A stretch of 12,849 nt of DNA from Halalkalibacterium halodurans. Lineage in GTDB: Bacteria; Bacillota; Bacilli; Bacillales; Bacillaceae_D. Shown here piece by piece: positions 2,687-12,849 of the stretch. The stretch spans positions 1 through 12,849 of the forward strand of contig NZ_SNUY01000086.1 in NCBI RefSeq assembly GCF_004376175.1, in the 5' to 3' direction. The position numbers and the translations under genes are program-made. Within the stretch, counting starts at the first letter, position 1. Every line of letters starts with the position of its first letter. The notes under the pieces were generated by a model. It did not search any database. It saw nothing but the letters and a program-made list of their open reading frames with translations, and was not told the origin of the DNA.

Positions 2687-3811
2687 ATGGTAAGCCTATC
2701 TCAAGGAACAGCGTTAAGCATAACGGCTTATGAAAACATTTGCGAACAAAAAGAAATACAAGATTTTACCCTCGGTCCTATTCAAAGGAATTATCTCTAT
2801 TTCGCCGGCTCCCCAGAGACAGTGAAAATCAAGCCTCCAATACGCCCTTTCCCCAATCAAAGCATACCGTCACATTGTGAAACGAAACCTTTTTATCTCG
2901 CAAGTATTAAACAGCCAATGTGTGTCAAACACCAAGTGATCCTATACAAACAAACATCTTTATTACCTGATAGCTTCCGGCATGAAACACGAGATGACTT
3001 CCATCAAGCCCTTCACTATGATCTAAAAACTAAGCAGTATCGGATCAAAAGGTTGGAGGAGACGACTCGCTGGCTTCCGGGGGATAGCCTTTTCCTTAGC
3101 GGCGAATTTTCAGGGGAGTATGGTCATTTTCTTTTAGAAATTCTCTCGAGATTATGGATTACAGACTTTATTCAGATTCAATCGCTTCCCATTTTAATGA
3201 ACCCAACCGATCGAAAGCAATGGCAGCTTGATTTATTGAAACCTTTTGGCATTAAGAAGCCGCAAATCGTTCCTTTGCATCAACCTACCGTTTGTGAACG
3301 GCTTCATATTCCGGTTCAATCTTTTTCTCTACGCCGTTATACATCTTCTTTTGCACACAAAGTTTGGAAAACAATCGGTGACTATTATGATACAGGTAGC
3401 CAACAGGTACCCGACAAAATTTATGTGTCAAGGTCCCGGCTTAAATCAAACCGAAGACGCTTGATAAATGAGACCGATGTTGAGCGTCTCTTTAGCCGCA
3501 ATGGATTTCAGATCATTCATCCTCAGGAGCTGACAATCAAAGAACAAATCAATCTTTTTCGTCATGCTCAAGTGATCGCTGGTCCCCTCGGTTCAGCGAT
3601 GTACAATTGTGTTTTTCAAACAAAACCAACAAAAAAATTGCTACTGACCTATGAAAAATTCATCAAAATGAGCGATCTGTTGATCAACACGTCTACAAAT
3701 GGGTTGCTTTATTATTTTGCAGGAACTGAACATAAACAAAACAAATCTCCTAGTAACACTGAATGGTCCATTAATCTTAATCAGCTCGCAGCTTATCTTG
3801 AAAACTTTTAA
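2687..3811 (+). CDS. GT61/DUF563-family glycosyltransferase, 374 aa
   Basis: AGGTGA at 2677-2682, 4 nt before the ATG. The GEYGHFLLEILSRLW motif and the C-terminal block IYVSRSRLKSNRRRLINETDVERLFSRNGFQIIHPQELTIKEQINLFRHAQVIAGPLGSAMYNCVF are characteristic of the DUF563/GT61 (EOGT-like) family. Confidence 0.85.
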   Translation: MVSLSQGTALSITAYENICEQKEIQDFTLGPIQRNYLYFAGSPETVKIKPPIRPFPNQSIPSHCETKPFYLASIKQPMCVKHQVILYKQTSLLPDSFRHETRDDFHQALHYDLKTKQYRIKRLEETTRWLPGDSLFLSGEFSGEYGHFLLEILSRLWITDFIQIQSLPILMNPTDRKQWQLDLLKPFGIKKPQIVPLHQPTVCERLHIPVQSFSLRRYTSSFAHKVWKTIGDYYDTGSQQVPDKIYVSRSRLKSNRRRLINETDVERLFSRNGFQIIHPQELTIKEQINLFRHAQVIAGPLGSAMYNCVFQTKPTKKLLLTYEKFIKMSDLLINTSTNGLLYYFAGTEHKQNKSPSNTEWSINLNQLAAYLENF

Positions 3812-4467
3812 AAATGCTTTAACGAATGATCCAAAAACAGACGTACATCATCTAGACGCTTCTTTGGCGCTCGCCCTAACCGTTGATTCACTGCTGCTAC
3901 CAACTCGTCTGGATGCTGCAATAGATCGCTGAAGTGAACGTCAATGATATCCGCTCCTTCCTCTACAAGCTGCTCGCGAATGCGCTGTTTATTTCCTAGG
4001 TATGGTAGCAAAATTTGTTGCGCCTCTAATTCTGTCATATCATTTCGTCTAACCAAGGATGCAATCGATTCTTTTATTGGACGATGGACAATAATATATG
4101 TGATGTCGGCCACTCTTTCCATTGGCCCTTTCCACAGGTCAAAAGTTAACAACATCCGTGGATCTTTTATGCCCCATGCAGGTTTGGCATGCTGTAATAA
4201 AAAAGTCTTTACCTGCCTTCTCGGTATTTTTAATTGTTTAATAAGTTCAGGAGAAGGCGGTTTTTTCCAACTCCCACCGATAGTGTGTAAAATCCGATCA
4301 TTTACCGCAACGAATTCTTCGTTCTCAAAATGCCCCTTAGGGTTCCATTCATTTTCCTTTAGTAGATGTTGTCCCATATGAACACCTAAATGATACAAAA
4401 CCCCTGCAGTTGCACTTGAGCCTGATCGATGTAGCGTCAAAATAAGGAACAGTTTTGATCGTATCAT
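3808..4467 (-). CDS. Sulfotransferase (RSGSS P-loop type, Sulfotransfer_3-like), 219 aa
   Basis: Start moved from 4617 to ATG 4467, with GGAAAGGGGGGAGAG immediately upstream. Motifs seen: MIRSKLFLILTLHRSGSSATAG, NPKGHFENEEF, WGIKDPR, IVHRP..ES..SL. The CDS overlaps the convergent GT61 by 4 nt. Confidence 0.8.
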   Translation of the reverse strand: MIRSKLFLILTLHRSGSSATAGVLYHLGVHMGQHLLKENEWNPKGHFENEEFVAVNDRILHTIGGSWKKPPSPELIKQLKIPRRQVKTFLLQHAKPAWGIKDPRMLLTFDLWKGPMERVADITYIIVHRPIKESIASLVRRNDMTELEAQQILLPYLGNKQRIREQLVEEGADIIDVHFSDLLQHPDELVAAVNQRLGRAPKKRLDDVRLFLDHSLKHF

Positions 4468-4570
4468 CTCTCCCCCCTTTCCTCTTTTTATACCTTTATG
4501 TGAAGCGAATGTTTTTCGTGTGTACATGTTGTTCCCGATTTCTAAGAGAAAAGCAAAAAAGCGAAATAGA

Positions 4571-5335
4571 TTATCTATCCCGCTTTCCATGGAACCCTTG
4601 TTGATGTTTACGCTCAAAACGCTTTAATCGATAGGCAGACAATGGGTCCAACGCTCGAATCCGTTTGGTCAATAATTCCTTTGCGAACGCATAAAGTTCA
4701 AGGTCAGCTTCATTATTTTTAGCAATTTTCTCCAGTAGATTAGGGGAGATTTCCTCCTTTGATCGCCGTTTTTTCGTTACGTTGTATTTTTGATAAGCGA
4801 CCTGCTTCCAGTTGAACATCTCCTTCATTAAAAAGAGCGAAGCGTCAAACTTTTCGGTTAAGCCTACAACGGCAAAGTGATTTTTTAAAATGTTCTTTGC
4901 CCGATTAACTTCCGTCACGGACGTCAGCTGCCCCCCTAAAATATATCGCGTTTGCAAATTCCGATTCTTCGGAAGTGCCTGATATTCTTCTAAACTCATC
5001 TTCATGACCGACTCATGTAAATTATGCCATTCGATATTGCGAATAAAATAGTACTCTGAAATGACTCGATCGACCGGATCACGCAACATTGTAATATAGG
5101 TCGTGGGACGGTTGAAATATTCATGTACCCCGAAAGGCAAATGACCCTGAACACATTCAATGTTTTGCTTTGATAAACCTTTGAAAATCCCAGGTAATTT
5201 ATGATGCTCCTCGTAAACATCCACACTTTTGCGGCTATCATAATTTCTCTTGATAATTTTTTTTAATGTTGTTCCACCTGTTTTCGGCATATGGAGATGG
5301 ATGAGTACGTTTGCTGAATGATTTCGGTTATCCAT
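4571..5335 (-). CDS. Carbohydrate sulfotransferase, PKTGG type (Sulfotransfer_2-like), paralogue 1, 254 aa
   Basis: HLHMPKTGGTTLKKII is a 5'-PSB motif and TMLRDPVDRVISEYYF a 3'-PB motif. Start chosen at ATG 5335 (MDNRNHSANVLIHLHMPKTGG). This gives the same N-terminal length and the same total length (765 nt) as paralogue 2, and it overlaps that gene's stop as ATGGATAA. No clear SD, so translational coupling is assumed. Confidence 0.82.
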   Translation of the reverse strand: MDNRNHSANVLIHLHMPKTGGTTLKKIIKRNYDSRKSVDVYEEHHKLPGIFKGLSKQNIECVQGHLPFGVHEYFNRPTTYITMLRDPVDRVISEYYFIRNIEWHNLHESVMKMSLEEYQALPKNRNLQTRYILGGQLTSVTEVNRAKNILKNHFAVVGLTEKFDASLFLMKEMFNWKQVAYQKYNVTKKRRSKEEISPNLLEKIAKNNEADLELYAFAKELLTKRIRALDPLSAYRLKRFERKHQQGFHGKRDR

Positions 5336-6092
5336 GTGGACCAAATCCATTTTGATCTTGTAAAAACTGTTGCAGTGCTTTCCTTGCACCTGAATCTAAC
5401 CGTTTGATGTGTTCCTGTAGCTTTTCCTTTGCTGTTTCATAAAGATGAAGGTCCAATGGATTCTTTCGTTTAATGATTTCGATGGTATCTAATCCTATGT
5501 CTGTTTGTCGTTTCCTTTTCTTCGTTACATTCTTTTTTTGATAGGAAATATGATCCCATCCTAATTTCTTCTTCATGATAAATAATGATTCATTATAAAG
5601 CTCTGTGATTCCGACGACAGAAAAGTGTGCGTCCATATGTTGTAACGCTTTGTTTAAATTAGGCTTCCTTTCACCAGATAGATACCTCGTTTGATGATTT
5701 GTTAGTGGCACTTGCAAGTCTGGATCTGTCGACCGCACAAACTGTTCAAAGGTGAGTGGTTTCACTTTTTGATGCATCCGATTTCTCTCATTTTGTAAGA
5801 TGAAATAATAAGTCGATATGATCCGTTCAACTGGATGTCGAAGCATCGTGATATATGTGAAGGGCTGTTGAAAATATTCGTGTACCCCAAAGCGATGATG
5901 ACCATACACACATTGGAGCTCCTTTATGTTTGCGCCTTTTTTCTGTAAATTGTCCAGCTTATTCTTTTGAGGCAGCCTTAAAATGTGCTCAGATCGGTAT
6001 TGTTGATCAAGAATATTCCGTAACGTGATCCCACCCGTTTTTGGTATGTGCATAAAAATAACAAGTGGGATTTTGGTTGATTCGTGTTTCAT
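5328..6092 (-). CDS. Carbohydrate sulfotransferase, PKTGG type (Sulfotransfer_2-like), paralogue 2, 254 aa
   Basis: Motifs seen: FMHIPKTGGITLRNIL and TMLRHPVERIISTYYF. Start moved from ATG 6161 (no SD) to ATG 6092, which has GGAG at 6103-6100 with a 7-nt spacer. Confidence 0.82.
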   Translation of the reverse strand: MKHESTKIPLVIFMHIPKTGGITLRNILDQQYRSEHILRLPQKNKLDNLQKKGANIKELQCVYGHHRFGVHEYFQQPFTYITMLRHPVERIISTYYFILQNERNRMHQKVKPLTFEQFVRSTDPDLQVPLTNHQTRYLSGERKPNLNKALQHMDAHFSVVGITELYNESLFIMKKKLGWDHISYQKKNVTKKRKRQTDIGLDTIEIIKRKNPLDLHLYETAKEKLQEHIKRLDSGARKALQQFLQDQNGFGPHG

Positions 6093-6230
6093 AAGAACAC
6101 TCCAATCAGCAGTCTTTATACCATTAGTATATTTTTCAAAAAACAAGATCGTTCTAGGCATACCGATTAATGATCTGCTTCAACGTTATGAATGGGTATC
6201 AGCGGGAAGAGAGGCGTTAGCGACTAACGT

Positions 6231-6279
6231 TGAAATACAAAATACCCCAAGTGTTAGATTTATGCTCTAACACTCGGGG
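6231..6279 (-). terminator. Rho-independent terminator downstream of the PHP gene
   Basis: The minus strand reads CCCCGAGTGTTAGA-gcataaa-TCTAACACTTGGGG (14-bp stem, one mismatch) followed by TATTTTGTATTT. A smaller hairpin ACCGTTC/GAACGGT (6286-6305) lies between the stop codon and this stem. Confidence 0.7.
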
Positions 6280-6314
6280 TGCAGCACCGTTCCAACAAGA
6301 ACGGTTCTCTCCTG

Positions 6315-7121
6315 TCATTCTTCATCCGCCTTCCATCCAAACTGTCCTAACGAATGTTCATCCGTATGGAAATCAGATCCACCTGTCTTTATAAGTGCAA
6401 ATTCTGTCGCTAACATTTTATACTTCTCCTGGTCGGTCTCGTCATGATTCCGATGCCACACTTCGATACCATCAAAATCAAGGGCTAACAATTCCCGGAC
6501 TAGCGTATCTTCTAAATAAACCGGATGGGCCAATATAGCTTTTCCACCTGCTTCGTGTATCAGCTTGATCCCTTCTTCTGGAGTCAAGATCATTTTGTCG
6601 ATAGCACATGGCTTACCATCTGCCAAATACTCATCAAAAACAGTCTGATAATCTAGAACATACCCTTTTTTGACGATTGCTTTCGCAATGTGAGGTCTTG
6701 CGATGACTCCATCCTCACTAAATTGTTTCACTTCATCGAGGGTAATTGTAAACCCAATGTCATTAAATTTTTCAATGATTTGCATCGCCCGTCCTTCTCG
6801 ATGCTTTTTTAACTGGACAAGGATTGCTTGTAATTTCTCACTCGCTTTAACGTTATACCCGAGAATGTCAACATTTGTTCCTTTGTATTTTGTAGTGAGT
6901 TCAATCGCAGGAATGACGTTAATACCGTGGCGCTTGCCAGCAATAACCGCTTCCTCAATCCCATCAAGTGTATCATGGTCTGTAATCGCGATTGTCCGTA
7001 ACCCGATCTCCTTGGCTTTCTTTACGATAGCTGTCGGCGAATATTCCCCATCGGAGGCTGTCGTATGAATATGCAAATCAAACGCGCCAGCTTGCACAAT
7101 TTCTTTTAAATCCATGTTCAT
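6315..7121 (-). CDS. PHP-domain metal-dependent phosphoesterase, TrpH/YciV (COG0613)-like, 268 aa; candidate 3',5'-bisphosphate nucleotidase
   Basis: Motifs seen: DLHIHTTASDGEYSP, IAITDHDTLDG, E at IELT, ILAHP, GGSDFH. Together these form the PHP metal-ligand pattern. AAGGAG lies upstream of ATG 7121. Confidence 0.88.
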   Translation of the reverse strand: MNMDLKEIVQAGAFDLHIHTTASDGEYSPTAIVKKAKEIGLRTIAITDHDTLDGIEEAVIAGKRHGINVIPAIELTTKYKGTNVDILGYNVKASEKLQAILVQLKKHREGRAMQIIEKFNDIGFTITLDEVKQFSEDGVIARPHIAKAIVKKGYVLDYQTVFDEYLADGKPCAIDKMILTPEEGIKLIHEAGGKAILAHPVYLEDTLVRELLALDFDGIEVWHRNHDETDQEKYKMLATEFALIKTGGSDFHTDEHSLGQFGWKADEE

Positions 7122-7240
7122 TCCTCATTTCTCCTTCGGCAGCTAAGAACAGCAAACGCATCATCCCACGGATGTTGTTCATCTTCCTTTTTTATTAAAT
7201 TAACATAAATCGCTAGGGTTCATGAACAAAAAGAAAAATC

Positions 7241-8551
7241 TTATGATGAAGTGTTAAATCGTGGCTGACACTTGTTCGTTTTCCATTCAATGGTCTCGCC
7301 TTGCTCGTACCTACCGATGGCACGGCTATCTAAAAAGACGGCGTTCTTTATTTGCAAATTTAGCTTCTTCATTACTCTTGATTTAATCGGGTATAGCCGG
7401 TTGTTTCCACTAAGATAGAACTTAAAGCCACAGCGAACAAGAAGACCTTCAGGTAACGGATGCTGATTGTTAACATGAGCTGAAATGGGGGGGCCTGTAG
7501 GAATAGAATCTAAAAAGGAACGGCTTACCTCCACCACTTCACTCGCACGGAATTTATACAACCGAAACTCTTTATGGGTCAAAATGTGACGCTTCCGATG
7601 GTTTTCAACATAATAGATGTGAGGCTCTTGGGAGGCTTTGATTAATCGATGGTTCGGAAAAAACTTCCTCTGCTCCCAAATGTGCTCATCAATAGCTGGC
7701 CCTTCCTTATATTTGAACAAAACAGGATCAGGAATATGAACAACATTTTCTTCACGATAGTGTAATTGTTGAAACATAGTAGGTGTAATGGCTCGTCGGT
7801 GGTTATCTTCTATTAAGTAAACATCCGCTCCTAATCCTTTCACTAACGTACCAGAAGGTAGGTACTCAGGAAGAAATGCGTTTAATGCTTGAAAAGATGT
7901 TGGGCTTTTTAAACATACATCGAGAACCTCATTGATCGGATAAAATAATGCGAATGCCGAAAGTCGGTTCCAGAAGAATGCATCTCCATTATGCCAACAG
8001 ATCGGATCATCATTCCAATAACTTCCGTACGTTTCGTACACCTTCTCGGCCAAACTTCGCCTGTGCATGACCGAACAGTGATCCACTATATTTTCTGCAT
8101 ACCGAATTGTTCCTTTCGTCGGACGAATACGTTCCGCTTGGGTGATCAACTGATTATCTACCGTTCTCACCAGCTGCTTTGAGTAAACGACATCGACACT
8201 CGGATACCGGTCTAAATATTGAACCATTTTCTGCAAGCGCTCTGGTAAATAGTAATTATCATCGGTTAAATAGCAAAGATAGTCACCTGTAGAGCGTGGA
8301 ATGGCTTCATTAATCAATGTAGCATACCGAGTCGACTTGTGCCGTTCTTCATCCTTAACTTGGCTGTTATAATAATAAACGTTCGGATAGAGCATATAAG
8401 AGTCGATCACTTGCTGCGTCTCTTCATTTGAAGCATCATCCATAATCCACAGTTCCCAATCTTGAAAAGGCTGAGACAGCACGCTTTCAATCGCAGCGCC
8501 GACTGTATTTGGCTTATTGTAACTCGTCAAAATAACCGTAACTTTTGCCAT
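7241..8551 (-). CDS. Two-part protein: SpsA-like GT2 domain (aa 1 to about 225) plus a triple-repeat C-terminal region, 436 aa
   Basis: AGAAGGTG lies 7 nt upstream of ATG 8551. MAKVTVILTSYNKPNTVGAAIESVLSQPFQDWELWIMDDASNEE, YLTDDN, DHCSVMHRRSLAEKVYETYGSYWNDD closely parallel SpsA. The C-terminal 200 aa have no counterpart in SpsA. Confidence 0.88.
   Translation of the reverse strand: MAKVTVILTSYNKPNTVGAAIESVLSQPFQDWELWIMDDASNEETQQVIDSYMLYPNVYYYNSQVKDEERHKSTRYATLINEAIPRSTGDYLCYLTDDNYYLPERLQKMVQYLDRYPSVDVVYSKQLVRTVDNQLITQAERIRPTKGTIRYAENIVDHCSVMHRRSLAEKVYETYGSYWNDDPICWHNGDAFFWNRLSAFALFYPINEVLDVCLKSPTSFQALNAFLPEYLPSGTLVKGLGADVYLIEDNHRRAITPTMFQQLHYREENVVHIPDPVLFKYKEGPAIDEHIWEQRKFFPNHRLIKASQEPHIYYVENHRKRHILTHKEFRLYKFRASEVVEVSRSFLDSIPTGPPISAHVNNQHPLPEGLLVRCGFKFYLSGNNRLYPIKSRVMKKLNLQIKNAVFLDSRAIGRYEQGETIEWKTNKCQPRFNTSS
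7289..7861 (-). repeat. Three tandem, diverged ~57-60-aa protein repeats in the C-terminal half of the long GT2
   Basis: R1 is aa 231-287: LPSGTLVKGLGADVYLIEDNHRRAI...KEGPAI. R2 is aa 298-356: FPNHRLIKASQEPHIYYVENHRKRHI...PTGPPI. R3 is aa 366-421: LPEGLLVRCGFKFYLSGNNRLYPI...EQGETI. Shared pattern: [LF]P..xL[VI][KR], aromatic-Y-[LYV], N[HN]R, I, then G..I at the end. Confidence 0.55.
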
Positions 8552-8624: not shown

Positions 8625-9486
8625 TTAGATCGCTTTAAAGCCCAACGTCCGTACCTTTTCTAAATCGTTTGGATGAAACTTCCTTAAATCAGCTTCTTTA
8701 TATTTCAACGTCGCTGCTGCCGGATCGATTTTCTCGCTCCATTCATCGAATGCGCCATCATCTACTGCTAAAGATTCAGCCAATTTCTGCAACTGTGGTG
8801 TTGGATTGACACAAAGCTGGTCAAAATGAATAAGCAAAAACCGGTCTTTCATCTGTTTTGTTCCATACATAACCGCTCGTTCGTTTGCCTTAATCCAATA
8901 CGTTAGTGATGCATTAGGGATCATCATAGAATTGTTTGGAATCGTTACACCAAATAATGGCCCCCAATTGAATAACTGCTGTTGATTTTTACTAAAAGCC
9001 ATATTTAATCCATTTCGGATCACATGAATGTACCTTACATTGGGAAAATAGCGATGAATGTAAGGCAAATATAGGTGAGCATTTGGCTCCTTCCACCCCC
9101 ATCCCTGATAGAGTTGCCTGTTTATCGGGTTCGGGGATAGCATGTTCCTTTTTATTTTTTGTGCTAACAAATCTCCATTCCGATAAGTCTGTGCAGCCTT
9201 TTCAATAAATTTAATGTCGTTACCGGTTAATTTTTTGAGTGGTTAGCCTGTTTTCTAAAATTTTAAGTCCGCGAAAAATTTCCTGTTCATTCAAGTTTAC
9301 AACCTTCGAAAACCAAATCGGTCGCTTAAATAACAAACTAAAATACAACAAATCCTTTGATTGATTTAGCATGTCCCCGAGATAAAAACCCATATCCATT
9401 ACAATTTCGGCAATGAGCCTCGTCCCGCTCCCACCAACACCACCAATGACAATAGGACCTTGCTTTGCAAAATCAGGCACAATCAC
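8625..9486 (-). pseudogene. Sulfotransferase (GGSGTR type) split into two ORFs by a 1-nt frameshift in an A6 tract
   Basis: ORF 9220-9486 gives the N-terminus with IVIGGVGGSGTRLIAEIV (PAPS P-loop). ORF 8625-9170 gives WGWKEPNAHLYLPYIHRYFPNVRYIHVIRNGLNMAFSKNQQQ. The second frame is open back to 9242, so the two frames overlap only across 9223-9242, which contains T6 on + (9231-9236). Removing one A gives a continuous ...RLTTQKLTGNDIKFIEKAAQTYRNGDLLAQK..., about 287 aa. Confidence 0.75.
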
Positions 9487-9630: not shown

Positions 9631-10435
9631 GTGTTACACCGTGCCATCAAACTTAGAAACGGTTCTTTTTTGCACATCCCAAAAACAGGCGGTCTCACGC
9701 TACGGGGGATTATTGAGGATCAATACTCTAAAGATGAGCGATTGAAGTACCCGAGGTTACAACCAGCACGCTTCCATTCACTCATCAAGGACACCGCGTT
9801 TAATCCTCCTTTGTATCTTGGGTTACAACCAGCACGCTTCCATTCACTCCCTAAAAGAAAATTAACATCCTTAAGATGCGTGTACGGTCATTTTGGCTAT
9901 GGCATTCATTCCACACTTCACCAACCGTTTACTTACATTACCATGCTGCGTGACCCCGTGGAACGAGTTATCTCCACGTACTATTTTGTTTTACAAAACC
10001 CGCAAAATCGCCTGCACCATCAGGTGAAGCAGATGAGCTTCGAACAATTTGTTGCTAGTGATCTCCCAGTCGTTAGTAACCATCAAACCCGTCTCATTTC
10101 AGGGAAACCAATCCCGCATCTAGCCCTTGCCAAAAAGCATTTAAACCAACATTTTTCTATCGTCGGGATTACGGACATGTACGCACAATCCATTTTCTTA
10201 ATGAGCCAACGATTTGATTGGAAAAACGTCCAGTACACAAAGAAAAACAAGACAAAACACCGATTAAAACAAGAGGACTTTTCACAAGAAACCATTGCCA
10301 ACATTCGTAAAACGAAATGAGCTGGACCTTGCGCTGTATGATTACGCAAAAGACCGATTGCAGAGGCAGCTTCATTCTCTAGATTCTGTGAGTCAACGAG
10401 GGCTAGAGAAGTTTATCAAACGTCAACTGGTTTAA
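9631..10435 (+). pseudogene. PKTGG-type sulfotransferase paralogue 3, disrupted by two homopolymer frameshifts and a 66-bp in-frame insertion
   Basis: The best SD, GAGGAGGTG (9625-9633), serves GTG 9641, which is in the +1 frame (MPSNLETVLF...). One extra T in the T6 run 9666-9671 would give MPSNLETVLFLHIPKTGG, matching paralogues 1 and 2. The track ORF stops at 10320. The +1 frame then continues KRNELDLALYDYAKDRLQRQLHSLDSVSQRGLEKFIKRQLV to TAA 10433-10435, matching the paralogue C-termini. That shift is at the A4 run 10309-10312. Confidence 0.75.
9755..9849 (+). repeat. Perfect 29-bp direct repeat (2 copies, 66-bp period) flanking a 37-bp unique segment inside paralogue 3
   Basis: GGTTACAACCAGCACGCTTCCATTCACTC occurs at 9755-9783 and 9821-9849, read directly. 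It encodes LQPARFHSL twice. The paralogue 2 alignment shows exactly 22 extra codons here. Confidence 0.95.
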
Positions 10436-10442
10436 TATGTAT

Positions 10443-10487
10443 AGAGAGCAGGCTGCTCTAAGCAAAACAGCCTGCTCTCTTTTCGTT
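10443..10487 (+). terminator. Rho-independent terminator between convergent genes (possibly bidirectional)
   Basis: AGAGAGCAGGCTG (10443-10455) and CAGCCTGCTCTCT (10468-10480) form a perfect 13-bp stem with a 12-nt loop, followed by TTTCGTT. An A-rich tract precedes it for the opposite direction. It lies between TAA 10435 and the epimerase stop at 10489. Confidence 0.75.
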
Positions 10488-10488
10488 A

Positions 10489-11571
10489 TCATGAAAATAG
10501 AATATCTAAAATCTTTTGACTTACACCATGATTTCCGTACGGGTGTTTCCAGTTTGCTTGGTTCGTTCGGATGCTTTCCACACATTGAAGGATGGATTGG
10601 GTTTCAAAACCAGCTAGTTGGTTCGCGCCACATTCAACCGTTTCTGGTCGTTCTGTATTTAAACGTAAGGTGATACAAGGTGTACCAATGATACATGCCT
10701 CTTCTTGTATCCCTCCACTATCAGTTAAGATTCCTTTGGCATCCCGTTGAAGCAACAGAGCGTTAACAAAATTTGTAGGGGGATCAATGAGTATAATGGC
10801 CTCGTTTGTTTTTAGCCGTTCATAAAGGTTATTTTCAATTAACTTTTGTTTCGTTCGAGGGTGTAAGGACAAAACAACTTTCTCCGGGCCTTCCTTTGCT
10901 ACACGATCAAGAGCTTTTACGATTGATGAGAGCCTAAGAGGGTTGTCTGTATTTTCTTGACGATGGACAGTTACAAAAAAATAGGATTTGGGCTGAAGAT
11001 TGAAGGCTTGTAGCAGTTTAGTCGATTGGACATGGCTTTTAATGAAGTGTACTGCATCAACAATCGTTTGACCTGTTTGATAAACCCCATTAACGATCCC
11101 CTCTTTGGCCAAATTTTCCCCTGCTTGCTGTGTAGGTGTGAATAAATACTGAGCGATATGATCAACAAGCACCCGATTAATTTCCTCAGGCATGCTACGG
11201 TCATAGCTTCTTAATCCCGCTTCCACATGGGCAATTTTCACATTGAGCTTTGCTGCAGCTAAGGTCCCACCAAGGGTCGTATTCGTATCCCCATGAACAA
11301 TAACCAGATCAATCTTCTCCCGCTGAATAATTTCTTCAACTCCTGTTAATATTTTTGCCGTCGTTGAAGCATGGGAGCCAGACCCAACCTTCAAATGATA
11401 ATCAGGCTGTTGCAAGTGAAATGTATCTAGAACCGCTCCATCCATTGAATAGTCGTAATGTTGACCTGAATGGATAAACAAATGATGAGGATCTAAGCTC
11501 TTAAGCACCTTTATAAGAACCGCCATTTTAATGAGCTCAGGTCGCGTTCCGACGATGACAGCCGCTTTCAT
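10489..11571 (-). CDS. wecB: UDP-N-acetylglucosamine 2-epimerase (non-hydrolysing), 360 aa
   Basis: AAGGAGAG lies 5 nt upstream of ATG 11571. Motifs seen: MKAAVIVGTRPELIKMA, VHGDTNTTL, HVEAGLRSYDRSMPEEINR, TDSGGIQEEA. These are hallmark WecB/MnaA motifs. Confidence 0.9.
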   Translation of the reverse strand: MKAAVIVGTRPELIKMAVLIKVLKSLDPHHLFIHSGQHYDYSMDGAVLDTFHLQQPDYHLKVGSGSHASTTAKILTGVEEIIQREKIDLVIVHGDTNTTLGGTLAAAKLNVKIAHVEAGLRSYDRSMPEEINRVLVDHIAQYLFTPTQQAGENLAKEGIVNGVYQTGQTIVDAVHFIKSHVQSTKLLQAFNLQPKSYFFVTVHRQENTDNPLRLSSIVKALDRVAKEGPEKVVLSLHPRTKQKLIENNLYERLKTNEAIILIDPPTNFVNALLLQRDAKGILTDSGGIQEEACIIGTPCITLRLNTERPETVECGANQLAGFETQSILQCVESIRTNQANWKHPYGNHGVSQKILDILFS

Positions 11572-11585
11572 GTAATCTCTCCTTC

Positions 11586-11624
11586 TAACTAGAATTATCC
11601 TGCCATTCGTGATGATTCTAGTTA
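11586..11624 (-). promoter_or_regulatory. Perfect 10-bp inverted repeat between the candidate -10 and the epimerase SD (operator or 5'-leader hairpin)
   Basis: TAACTAGAAT (11586-11595) and ATTCTAGTTA (11615-11624) are separated by a 19-nt spacer. One arm abuts the SD (11577-11584) and the other overlaps the end of the CATAGGATA element. Confidence 0.35.
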
Positions 11625-11650
11625 TCCTATGAGAAATAGAGAGATCTGGT
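11623..11650 (-). promoter_or_regulatory. Sigma-K-type promoter candidate for the epimerase
   Basis: The minus strand reads AC (11650-11649), 17 nt, then CATAGGATA (11631-11623). It sits about 52 nt upstream of ATG 11571. Confidence 0.3.
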
Positions 11651-11713
11651 TTGTTTTTTTACCTAATGGCTCTACCTCAATTTGTAGATTTTTTCAGTCC
11701 ACACCATCCTCTT

Positions 11714-12706
11714 CTAATTAGTATAATAAAGCTTGTAAATAATCGGTAACGATGATTTCGCTCTCATCTCATTTGTCATTTCCAAAAGGTTTTGACAGAT
11801 CTTTTGTTTTTTTTCTAACAATGCTTCAATTTTTTCATGAGTTATTGTCTCTTCTACATACCAGTCACTTAGTTGAAGATCATCCATTAAAAATTTAACC
11901 TTAGGTGTACTCTTTAACATTATTGTTGGTACACCATGACTAATGGAAACTAGTCCAGCATGTAACCTACTAGTGATAGTTAAATCACCAGCTGCAAGAC
12001 AGGCCCCTTTTTCTTCTAAACTAATAGAATCGGGAATAATTCTTCGATTTCTTTGATTCGTCGCTTGAATGTTATAATAAAAATCAAGTGATGTATCTTG
12101 CATTGAAATGATATTTTCATTGATCTGTGTCGTTACTTGAGATAATGCCTTTTTGAGGTTATTTCTAAAGTTGGCCGAATAGGCATTAAGTGCAATTAAT
12201 ACGTTCTTTTTACTTTTTGGTAACGGATAGGGCTTTGTTTTAAAGTTCCAAATCGCCTCAGGTACTACATCACAGTCTATGTTTAGATGTTTGTTCAATA
12301 ACACTTTATCCCCAGTCGTACGGACAGTCACTTCTGCTGCTTTTTGTAGTACATATTTTAACTTTGAGCACGCTTCTTCTTTTACTACACGATCATCTAC
12401 TCCTACACGACTAAAGATATATGGCTTTTTGATCCCCTCGTCTAAAAAGGTAAAAAAGTGAGCGCCTAAATAAATTAATCCTCCCCCACCAATAACTATT
12501 AAATCATAAGTGTTTAATTCCTTTCTAAATTCTTCAATCGCTTGATGTGCGGCTTTGACTAACGGATATTTAGGCTTCATGAATGTGTGCCATAAAGATC
12601 TGCTGTATACTGTAATTTCAGATAAAGGGACATTTTTTTTTATATTTTTGATCATCTCTAAAAGATTAATTTCATCACCAAAATTGTTATAGCCTGAATT
12701 ATTCAT
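11714..12706 (-). CDS. Polysaccharide pyruvyl transferase family protein (CsaB/WcaK-like), 330 aa, possibly N-terminally compromised
   Basis: Motifs seen: SGYNNFGDEINLL near the N-terminus, DLIVIGGGGLI, TSRLHAGLVSISHGVPTIML. There is no SD before ATG 12706. An in-frame TAA lies 10 codons upstream. Confidence 0.78.
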   Translation of the reverse strand: MNNSGYNNFGDEINLLEMIKNIKKNVPLSEITVYSRSLWHTFMKPKYPLVKAAHQAIEEFRKELNTYDLIVIGGGGLIYLGAHFFTFLDEGIKKPYIFSRVGVDDRVVKEEACSKLKYVLQKAAEVTVRTTGDKVLLNKHLNIDCDVVPEAIWNFKTKPYPLPKSKKNVLIALNAYSANFRNNLKKALSQVTTQINENIISMQDTSLDFYYNIQATNQRNRRIIPDSISLEEKGACLAAGDLTITSRLHAGLVSISHGVPTIMLKSTPKVKFLMDDLQLSDWYVEETITHEKIEALLEKKQKICQNLLEMTNEMRAKSSLPIIYKLYYTN

Positions 12707-12771
12707 AAAAAATCTTTGATAACCAAATAATGCTTATCTATCAAGGTATTGAGCTAAATGGTCCATGCATC

Positions 12772-12842
12772 AAATAAATGAAAAAAGAATCCATTTCTGA
12801 TATGGTTAAAGCAACGATGAAATAACCACAGAAAGGATTCTT
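12772..12842 (-). terminator. Long imperfect hairpin plus T-tract; probable terminator of a minus-strand gene lying beyond the right edge
   Basis: On the minus strand AAGAATCC/GGATTCTT, TTTCTG/CAGAAA and TGGTTA/TAACCA pair, giving about 20 bp with small bulges. TTTTCATTTATTT follows. Confidence 0.4.
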
Positions 12843-12849
12843 ATAATGG

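Follow-up and report, generated by a model that had tools for sequence, protein, structure and literature searches.

In this study we analysed a stretch of 12,849 nucleotides (nt) of the Halalkalibacterium halodurans genome (assembly GCF_004376175.1, contig NZ_SNUY01000086.1; the whole stretch is called the window hereafter) and concentrated on one of its genes, which codes for a phosphoesterase with a PHP domain. The data indicate that the protein is probably a dedicated phosphatase of 3'-phosphoadenosine 5'-phosphate (pAp), converting it to AMP and inorganic phosphate (Pi). pAp is the product of sulfotransfer from 3'-phosphoadenosine 5'-phosphosulfate (PAPS) and inhibits sulfotransferases (PMC8268124). 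The gene was located as follows:

6315..7121, minus strand: PHP-domain phosphoesterase, predicted pAp 3'-phosphatase of the D85/R224 subfamily of COG0613; 268 amino acids (aa), ATG start

The 268-aa sequence is 100% identical to an H. halodurans protein, and the PF02811 PHP domain was recognized in its N-terminal part (Pfam, E 3e-13). Two NCBIfam models aligned with the protein over its full length, NF041577 (3',5'-nucleoside bisphosphate phosphatase, 186.7 bits) being the top match and NF047791 (RNase RNM, 176.4 bits) the second. Among the structures of the PDB, sequence matches with E-values of 1e-29 to 1e-34 were obtained for 7UG9, 2YB1, 9ETK and 3E0F; the closest are E. coli RNase AM (7UG9, E 1.4e-33) and then Cv1693 (2YB1, 1e-31), and the other two are V. 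cholerae RNase AM (9ETK) and a Bifidobacterium protein (3E0F). An AlphaFold2 model generated from 31 orthologues (predicted local distance difference test 91.6, predicted template modelling score 0.85) displays, in agreement with the Foldseek comparison, the distorted (beta/alpha)7 barrel of PHP proteins and an inserted helical lobe. The best Foldseek match is 2YB1, which is Cv1693 with Mn, AMP and Pi (template modelling (TM) score 0.88, root-mean-square deviation (rmsd) 1.9 Å, 259 columns). The top five structures (2YB1, 9ETK, 3E0F, 3O0F and 7UG9) align over about 260 columns, with query-normalised TM scores of 0.85-0.88 for the four full-length ones and 0.63 for the truncated 7UG9 chain.

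The protein carries the motifs H17-I-H19, D24, D48-H49-D50, E74, H199 and D250-F-H252. Residue roles described for RNase AM, whose trinuclear site has nine ligands (H13/H15, D20, H45, E72, H83, H198, D255 and H257; PMC9410882), were mapped onto it through a HMMER alignment. For Mn-alpha, H13, E72 and D255 of RNase AM correspond to H17, E74 and D250; for Mn-beta, E72, H83 and H198 correspond to E74, D85 and H199; and for Mn-gamma, D20, H45 and H257 correspond to D24, H49 and H252. Eight of the nine metal ligands are thus identical (H17, H19, D24, H49, E74, H199, D250 and H252). The 5'-phosphate pocket is also intact, since R107, R110 and R141 of RNase AM are matched by R108, R111 and R142, and the base-stacking F161 by F162. 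An initial annotation, made from the sequence alone, had assigned the protein to the TrpH/YciV branch (COG0613), which is borne out by the NCBIfam and PDB sequence matches and by the agreement of the model with Cv1693. Its description of the PHP ligand pattern as full was correct for every motif that it listed, but its list of eight ligands omitted the ninth site, which holds Asp85.

The mechanism that we propose is drawn by homology with Cv1693 and RNase AM; the fold, the residues and the genomic linkage were observed, and the substrate, the role of Asp85 and Arg224 and the relief of inhibition are inferred. The enzyme would clear the pAp that is released whenever the neighbouring sulfotransferases use PAPS. 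Its insertion lobe (about residues 95-180) would clamp the 5'-phosphate of pAp through Arg108, Arg111 and Arg142, with the adenine stacked on Phe162, and the 3'-phosphate would sit on three metals, whose ligand sets are H17/H19/E74/D250, E74/D85/H199 and D24/H49/H252. Attack by a metal-bridged hydroxide would then free Pi and AMP. Arg224 may balance the charge of Asp85 or contact the phosphate. As a result, the local sulfotransferases would be kept free of product inhibition.

Other activities found among PHP proteins fit this family and fold poorly. A protein-tyrosine phosphatase of the CpsB/YwqE type that regulates polysaccharide export would suit a gene lying in a glycan locus, as the PHP proteins of Firmicute polysaccharide loci are classically of the CpsB type (e.g. 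PMC10816263). However, the protein gave no Pfam or NCBIfam match to CpsB/Cap8C-type models, only to PF02811 and COG0613-type models; CpsB/YwqE structures are absent among the Foldseek matches, and the Cv1693-type nucleotide-binding insertion lobe is present. Moreover, the window holds no BY-kinase or Wzz genes, and linkage to cysC (APS kinase; APS, adenosine 5'-phosphosulfate) and sat (ATP sulfurylase) is seen elsewhere even where no glycosyltransferase is adjacent. Family and fold effectively rule out a CpsB-type phosphatase, to which we give next to no probability. We also regard as very unlikely a phosphatase of sugar phosphates, lipid-linked intermediates or histidinol phosphate in a glycan or amino-acid pathway. 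PHP enzymes do include histidinol phosphatases, glycosyltransferases are present in the locus and a weak N-terminal match to NF004981 was found (E 2e-10), but this match covers only the HxH region (residues 14-76) with 40 bits against a cut-off of 117. The full-length fold and the pocket fit the nucleotide-binding COG0613 enzymes instead, and there are no his genes nearby. Histidinol phosphatase (HisJ/HisK) was rejected as an identity, given that no histidinol phosphatase model matched over the full length.

Linkage of the orthologues to sulfation genes

To describe the genomic context of the PHP gene in other species, we used orthologues with 51-72% identity, picked for genus diversity and long contigs when their contexts were not yet known. 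They come from Bacillaceae, Paenibacillaceae, Thermoactinomycetaceae and the clostridial Desulfofarcimen. Genes for sulfotransferases, APS kinase or ATP sulfurylase were found within 10 kb in 13 of the 14 species-level contexts, in at least four different local gene orders and often directly adjacent to the PHP gene. The contexts are (ST, sulfotransferase; GT2, family 2 glycosyltransferase):

H. halodurans: the same GT2-PHP-ST-ST-ST core in three further strains
Halalkalibacter alkalisediminis: sulfate permease-cysC-sat operon and PHP in divergent orientation
Cytobacillus firmus: sat and cysC at 6-7 kb
Desulfofarcimen acetoxidans: cysC end 18 bp upstream of PHP
Oceanobacillus sp.: cysC-sat-PHP, with sulfotransferases and TauE
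Neobacillus mesonae: GT2-PHP-GT2, with two sulfotransferases, sat, cysC and TauE
Caldalkalibacillus uzonensis: ST-GT2-PHP-sulfate permease-sat
Cohnella yongneupensis: Sulfotransfer_1 gene end 18 bp upstream
Desmospora profundinema: three sulfotransferases upstream
Lederbergia citrea: PHP and sat-cysC in convergent orientation, with TauE and three sulfotransferases
Peribacillus simplex: ST-ST-x-ST-PHP (4-bp overlap) followed by cysC-sat
Paenibacillus sp. yr247: three sulfotransferases followed by cysC and PHP
Metagenome locus L015 (52% identity, clade signature): Sulfotransfer_1 gene (E 4e-36) end 55 bp upstream
Effusibacillus dendaii (L013), the only exception: TauE-family permease 0.8 kb upstream, rhamnose-glycan cluster

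The variation of gene order between genera speaks for selection on the linkage rather than for mere inheritance of synteny. PAPS reductase domains are listed for none of the in-clade loci, and the PAPS made there is thus probably used for sulfotransfer. Soft additional support comes from at least a dozen organisms in which the longest contigs with PHP and with cysC matches are equal in size, some of them only 35-140 kb long. According to the initial annotation, a lack of conserved linkage to sulfotransferase genes among orthologues would have spoken against its proposal, and the survey found the opposite for sulfation genes as a whole; the sulfotransferases are not the sole partners, since APS kinase and ATP sulfurylase are at least equally represented. 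Its central proposal of a cluster-associated PHP enzyme of COG0613 for the removal of pAp is supported by the 13/14 linkage, together with the family, the fold and the pocket residues.

The control set consisted of more remote homologues (35-45% identity), nearly all of which carry His85. They come from 80 metagenome loci, minus the clade-signature locus L015, plus two genome loci, which gives 81 homologues, in 79 distinct contexts after removal of duplicate contigs. In eight of the 79 contexts cysC or sat was found nearby, often directly adjacent, and one context had a sulfotransferase; when both flanks were required to reach at least 5 kb the fraction was 4/20. The difference between 13/14 in-clade and 8/79 out-of-clade contexts corresponds to a Fisher p of about 1e-9, ignoring phylogeny. 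Sulfotransferases were detected by tblastn (which missed divergent ones, e.g. in L015 and L096), Pfam and iterated hidden Markov models (HMMs), and the HMMs were trained on Firmicute sequences, so that the out-of-clade sulfotransferase counts are perhaps slightly low. Pfam analysis of 136 immediate out-of-clade neighbours revealed RNase Y (6), peptidase M19 (6), APS kinase (5), RNase III (4) and DksA (4); the 25 most frequent families did not include any sulfotransferase. Homologues of COG0613 with His85 from unrelated metagenomic lineages also adjoin APS kinase or ATP sulfurylase (L017, L024, L071, L092 and L093). From these neighbourhoods the COG0613 family seems to be split between PAPS-linked and RNA-linked contexts, the D85/R224 clade being almost exclusively of the sulfation type.

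These contexts bear on the possibility that the protein works in the manner of RNase AM, as a 5'-3' exo-oligoribonuclease or diribonuclease in housekeeping RNA turnover or in the maturation of rRNA 5' ends, with an incidental position in a glycan locus. In sequence, no PDB entry comes closer than RNase AM (7UG9), NF047791 scores nearly as high as NF041577, a 5'-phosphate pocket also serves RNA with a 5'-phosphate, and the RNase Y and RNase III neighbours of the distant homologues point in the same direction. However, genes for RNases or ribosome biogenesis are neighbours in none of the 14 in-clade contexts, whereas sulfation genes are present in 13, and this linkage survives differing gene orders in several families. 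The distribution of the clade also seems patchy, with no PHP protein of the B. subtilis or B. cereus groups among the best 120 homologues, which would be unexpected for a housekeeping RNase. In addition, RNase AM itself is best on pAp in vitro, and the E. coli enzyme was described with enhanced activity toward pAp (PMC11528712). We therefore consider a primary role in RNA metabolism unlikely.

A second possibility raised by the linkage is that the enzyme acts on PAPS or APS, for instance as a PAPS 3'-phosphatase that tunes the donor pool, or on a different nucleotide with a 3'-phosphate, e.g. products derived from 3'-phospho-CoA. The association with PAPS synthesis genes is as strong as that with sulfotransferases, and the altered active site (D85, R224 and no Arg after His199-Pro) leaves room for a changed specificity. 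Nevertheless, the 5'-phosphate pocket is the same as in proteins that bind a plain 5'-phosphate, with no sign of an enlargement for a phosphosulfate, and the destruction of PAPS beside its makers and users would be wasteful. Furthermore, no PAPS-specific member of the family is reported in the literature searched. This substrate choice appears decidedly improbable to us, and pAp remains the preferred substrate.

Two other features of the sulfation loci were recorded. A TauE-family (sulfite/sulfonate exporter-like) permease recurs beside sat, cysC and PHP (L012, L013, L014 and L098) and may be an anion transporter of these loci. Spore-coat-type genes (YheC/D ATP-grasp proteins, CotZ and YkvP-like glycosyltransferases) flank the PHP gene in five Bacillales loci (L007, L014, L095, L097 and L098), a gene content which suggests that the sulfated product may be a spore-surface glycan; we found no publication on sulfated spore glycans in the literature searched.

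The D85/R224 subfamily and the weight of the evidence

The homologue set used to delimit the subfamily consisted of the closest 120 sequences (54-100% identity), from genera that include Halalkalibacter, Cytobacillus, Neobacillus, Peribacillus, Oceanobacillus, Paenibacillus, Cohnella, Desmospora, Effusibacillus and Desulfofarcimen. D85, W222, H223 and R224 are kept in all 120, as are the eight ligands, the three arginines of the pocket, H144 and F162. When a library clustered at 50% identity was searched, the clade was reduced to one representative (360 bits) and three outliers (260-230 bits), beyond which a continuum begins at 214 bits, among 2,415 representatives with E <= 1e-30. Within the 150 nearest representatives D85 is present in 12 and R224 in six, and R224 accompanies Asp85 in five of 12 sequences versus one of 138 with His85 (Fisher p about 8e-6, ignoring phylogeny). 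On these alignments the subfamily is defined by D85 and R224, which co-vary. The pair W222-H223 and the lack of an Arg after His199-Pro were also tried as marks of the clade and rejected, as they are common among the 150 nearest representatives; positions 222-223 of the non-proteobacterial relatives are often an aromatic residue followed by His or Tyr. In the secondary structure of the AlphaFold2 model, strand 218-223 is followed at its C-terminal end by R224, a position at which the PHP fold has its active-site residues. It is a reasonable proposal from this placement that the two changes are coupled, Asp85 adding a negative charge to the first shell and Arg224 compensating for it or contacting the phosphate.

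Several observations weigh against the assignment as a pAp phosphatase. Both NCBIfam scores miss the equivalog cut-offs and are less than half of them (400 bits for NF041577 and 375 bits for NF047791). The ninth ligand, Mn-beta His83 of RNase AM, is replaced by Asp85, although Asp can ligate metal, and the Arg that contacts the scissile phosphate (R201 of RNase AM, R194 of Cv1693) has no counterpart in the sequence A-H199-P-V-Y-L; with these two changes the specificity could differ. The Effusibacillus locus has just the TauE permease as a sulfur-related neighbour, a terminator-like hairpin parts the H. halodurans PHP gene from the sulfotransferase operon, and sat and cysC are absent within 10 kb of the PHP gene in the H. 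halodurans loci. Finally, the linkage statistics take no account of phylogeny and the control loci are on shorter metagenome contigs. The scores below the cut-offs and the ligand substitution indicate a distinct subfamily rather than an orthologue of Cv1693. As to the missing Arg, a residue of this kind within five positions after the His was found in only 26 of 151 sequences and is mostly absent outside proteobacteria, and thus it may mark only the proteobacterial branch.

The PHP gene and its surroundings in the window

The position given in the initial annotation was confirmed: on the minus strand, the PHP gene has a GT2 gene on its upstream side and two Sulfotransfer_2 genes on its downstream side. 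The features of the window are:

7132..7137, minus strand: Shine-Dalgarno-like AAGGAG, read from the sequence, 10 nt 5' of the ATG at 7121
6244..6280, minus strand: hairpin resembling an intrinsic terminator (15-bp stem with 7 GC pairs, followed by a T-rich tail), a consensus match only
7241..8551, minus strand: GT2 glycosyltransferase, upstream neighbour; 436 aa, GT2 domain at residues 5-147 and a long C-terminal extension
5328..6161, minus strand: Sulfotransfer_2 sulfotransferase, predicted PAPS user and pAp producer; 277 aa, PF03567 E 5e-9
4571..5389, minus strand: Sulfotransfer_2 sulfotransferase, overlapping the 5328..6161 gene; 272 aa, PF03567 E 1e-10
3808..4617, minus strand: divergent sulfotransferase-like protein; 269 aa, below Pfam thresholds (Sulfotransfer_3 E 0.16)
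8625..9486, minus strand: Sulfotransfer_3 gene, split into fragments 9220-9486 (88 aa) and 8625-9170 (181 aa)
9631..10320, plus strand: Sulfotransfer_2 gene; 229 aa, duplicated peptide LQPARFHSL
10489-11571: wecB (Pfam/NCBIfam)
11714-12706: CsaB-like pyruvyl transferase (Pfam/NCBIfam)

The hairpin, read from 6280 to 6244, begins 35 nt past the PHP stop codon and precedes the sulfotransferase genes, and the gap of 119 nt between the GT2 and PHP genes contains no predicted terminator. The location of the hairpin suggests that PHP closes a GT2-PHP unit outside the sulfotransferase operon. Judged from this arrangement, the PHP gene is probably the last gene of a GT2-PHP transcription unit, clustered with its presumed sulfotransferase clients. 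A sigma-70 promoter scan gave 12 sites versus 15.6 expected from shuffling, with no promoter above chance.

The rest of the glycan locus in the window comprises rmlD, rmlC, GT2 and GT61 genes, two further sulfotransferase genes, wecB and the CsaB-like gene. The Sulfotransfer_3 gene at 8625-9486 lacks 2 bp (AA) that are present in the intact 285-aa gene of strain L005 (L005:7640-8497); this deletion splits it, and it is likely a frameshifted pseudogene in the strain analysed here. The Sulfotransfer_2 gene at 9631-10320, with its tandem duplication of LQPARFHSL, codes for 229 aa versus 256 aa in strain L005. Relatives of the 3808-4617 protein recur in other PHP-linked sulfation loci (e.g. L097:1505-2356), and this protein may represent a divergent sulfotransferase-like family outside the coverage of Pfam.

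At the start of the window only about the last 47 codons of rmlB (dTDP-glucose 4,6-dehydratase) were found, inside the open reading frame 350-559. Positions 1-394 are unmatched in three other H. halodurans strains, in which full rmlA-rmlB precede rmlD; the rhamnose operon appears to be truncated or rearranged here, with rmlD and rmlC intact. At the opposite end, wecB and the CsaB-like gene (about 10400-12849) are not matched within 10 kb in strains L004-L006, where GT4/GT1 and different sulfotransferase genes are found in their place. This strain-variable arm adjoins the conserved GT2-PHP-sulfotransferase core, which has 98.6-99.2% nt identity among strains.

Significance and comparison with known systems

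pAp is a potent inhibitor of sulfotransferases and of several RNA-processing enzymes, and every pathway that uses PAPS therefore needs a pAp sink. A PHP subfamily whose genes are accompanied, in several Firmicute families, by those for APS kinase, ATP sulfurylase, sulfate permeases and sulfotransferases is a concrete candidate for this sink in Firmicutes, and it flags glycan-sulfation loci in spore-formers. In engineered bacterial sulfation systems, an enzyme of this type could be co-expressed to lessen inhibition by the product. We also put forward, tentatively and with considerable doubt, the wider proposal that the D85/R224 PHP protein is the physiological pAp phosphatase of PAPS-using Firmicutes and marks a widespread but hardly studied sulfation of envelope or spore-surface glycans in Bacillales, Paenibacillaceae and some Clostridia, its metal site being re-tuned for pAp. 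A PHP pAp phosphatase is already known as a kind of enzyme from Cv1693, as is the logic of pAp removal, which makes the finding sensible rather than startling. The Firmicute D85/R224 subfamily and its linkage to sulfation are undescribed in the literature searched, which was limited and dealt mostly with gamma-proteobacterial RNase AM.

The nearest characterised enzyme in structure is Cv1693 of Chromobacterium violaceum (2YB1/2YB4), a COG0613 3',5'-nucleotide bisphosphate phosphatase of the PHP family (Cummings et al. 2014, as cited in PMC9410882). It has the fold with the insertion lobe in common with the window protein (TM 0.88, rmsd 1.9 Å), and the full-length sequences are about 31% identical. 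Eight of the nine ligands, the three arginines of the 5'-phosphate pocket, the stacking Phe and His144 are present in both. Cv1693 differs in that its His74 is Asp85 here, its Arg194 is missing and the invariant Arg224 is new. The near-obligate sulfation linkage of the Firmicute subfamily is also a difference, not being reported for Cv1693 in the literature searched.

RNase AM of gamma-proteobacteria (YciV/TrpH/Rnm; 7UG9 and 9ETK) offers the best PDB sequence match and has the catalytic architecture and the 5'-phosphate pocket in common with our protein. Its roles are the maturation of rRNA 5' ends and the clearance of diribonucleotides (PMC7261194; PMC11528712), whereas the clade of the window protein has no RNA-metabolism neighbours and carries D85/R224.

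The predicted reaction, removal of PAPS-derived pAp, is that of CysQ, the classical bacterial pAp phosphatase, which belongs to the inositol monophosphatase superfamily and has an unrelated fold and metal chemistry; it is an analogue and not a homologue. NrnA, a DHH/DHHA1 protein that is also unrelated in fold, has been proposed as the pAp phosphatase of B. subtilis and complements E. coli cysQ (summarised in PMC9757072). Weiss et al. (2022; PMC9757072) detected no pAp hydrolysis with 5 nM NrnA, 5 nM CysQ being active; NrnA required about 100-fold more enzyme than CysQ on pAp, and these authors doubted its physiological role and stated that another pAp phosphatase may exist. The premise of the initial annotation that NrnA is the housekeeping pAp phosphatase of Bacillus is consequently contested, and the pAp sink of Firmicutes is not firmly identified. 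With the role of NrnA in doubt, the D85/R224 PHP subfamily becomes a more interesting candidate for this sink than had been assumed.

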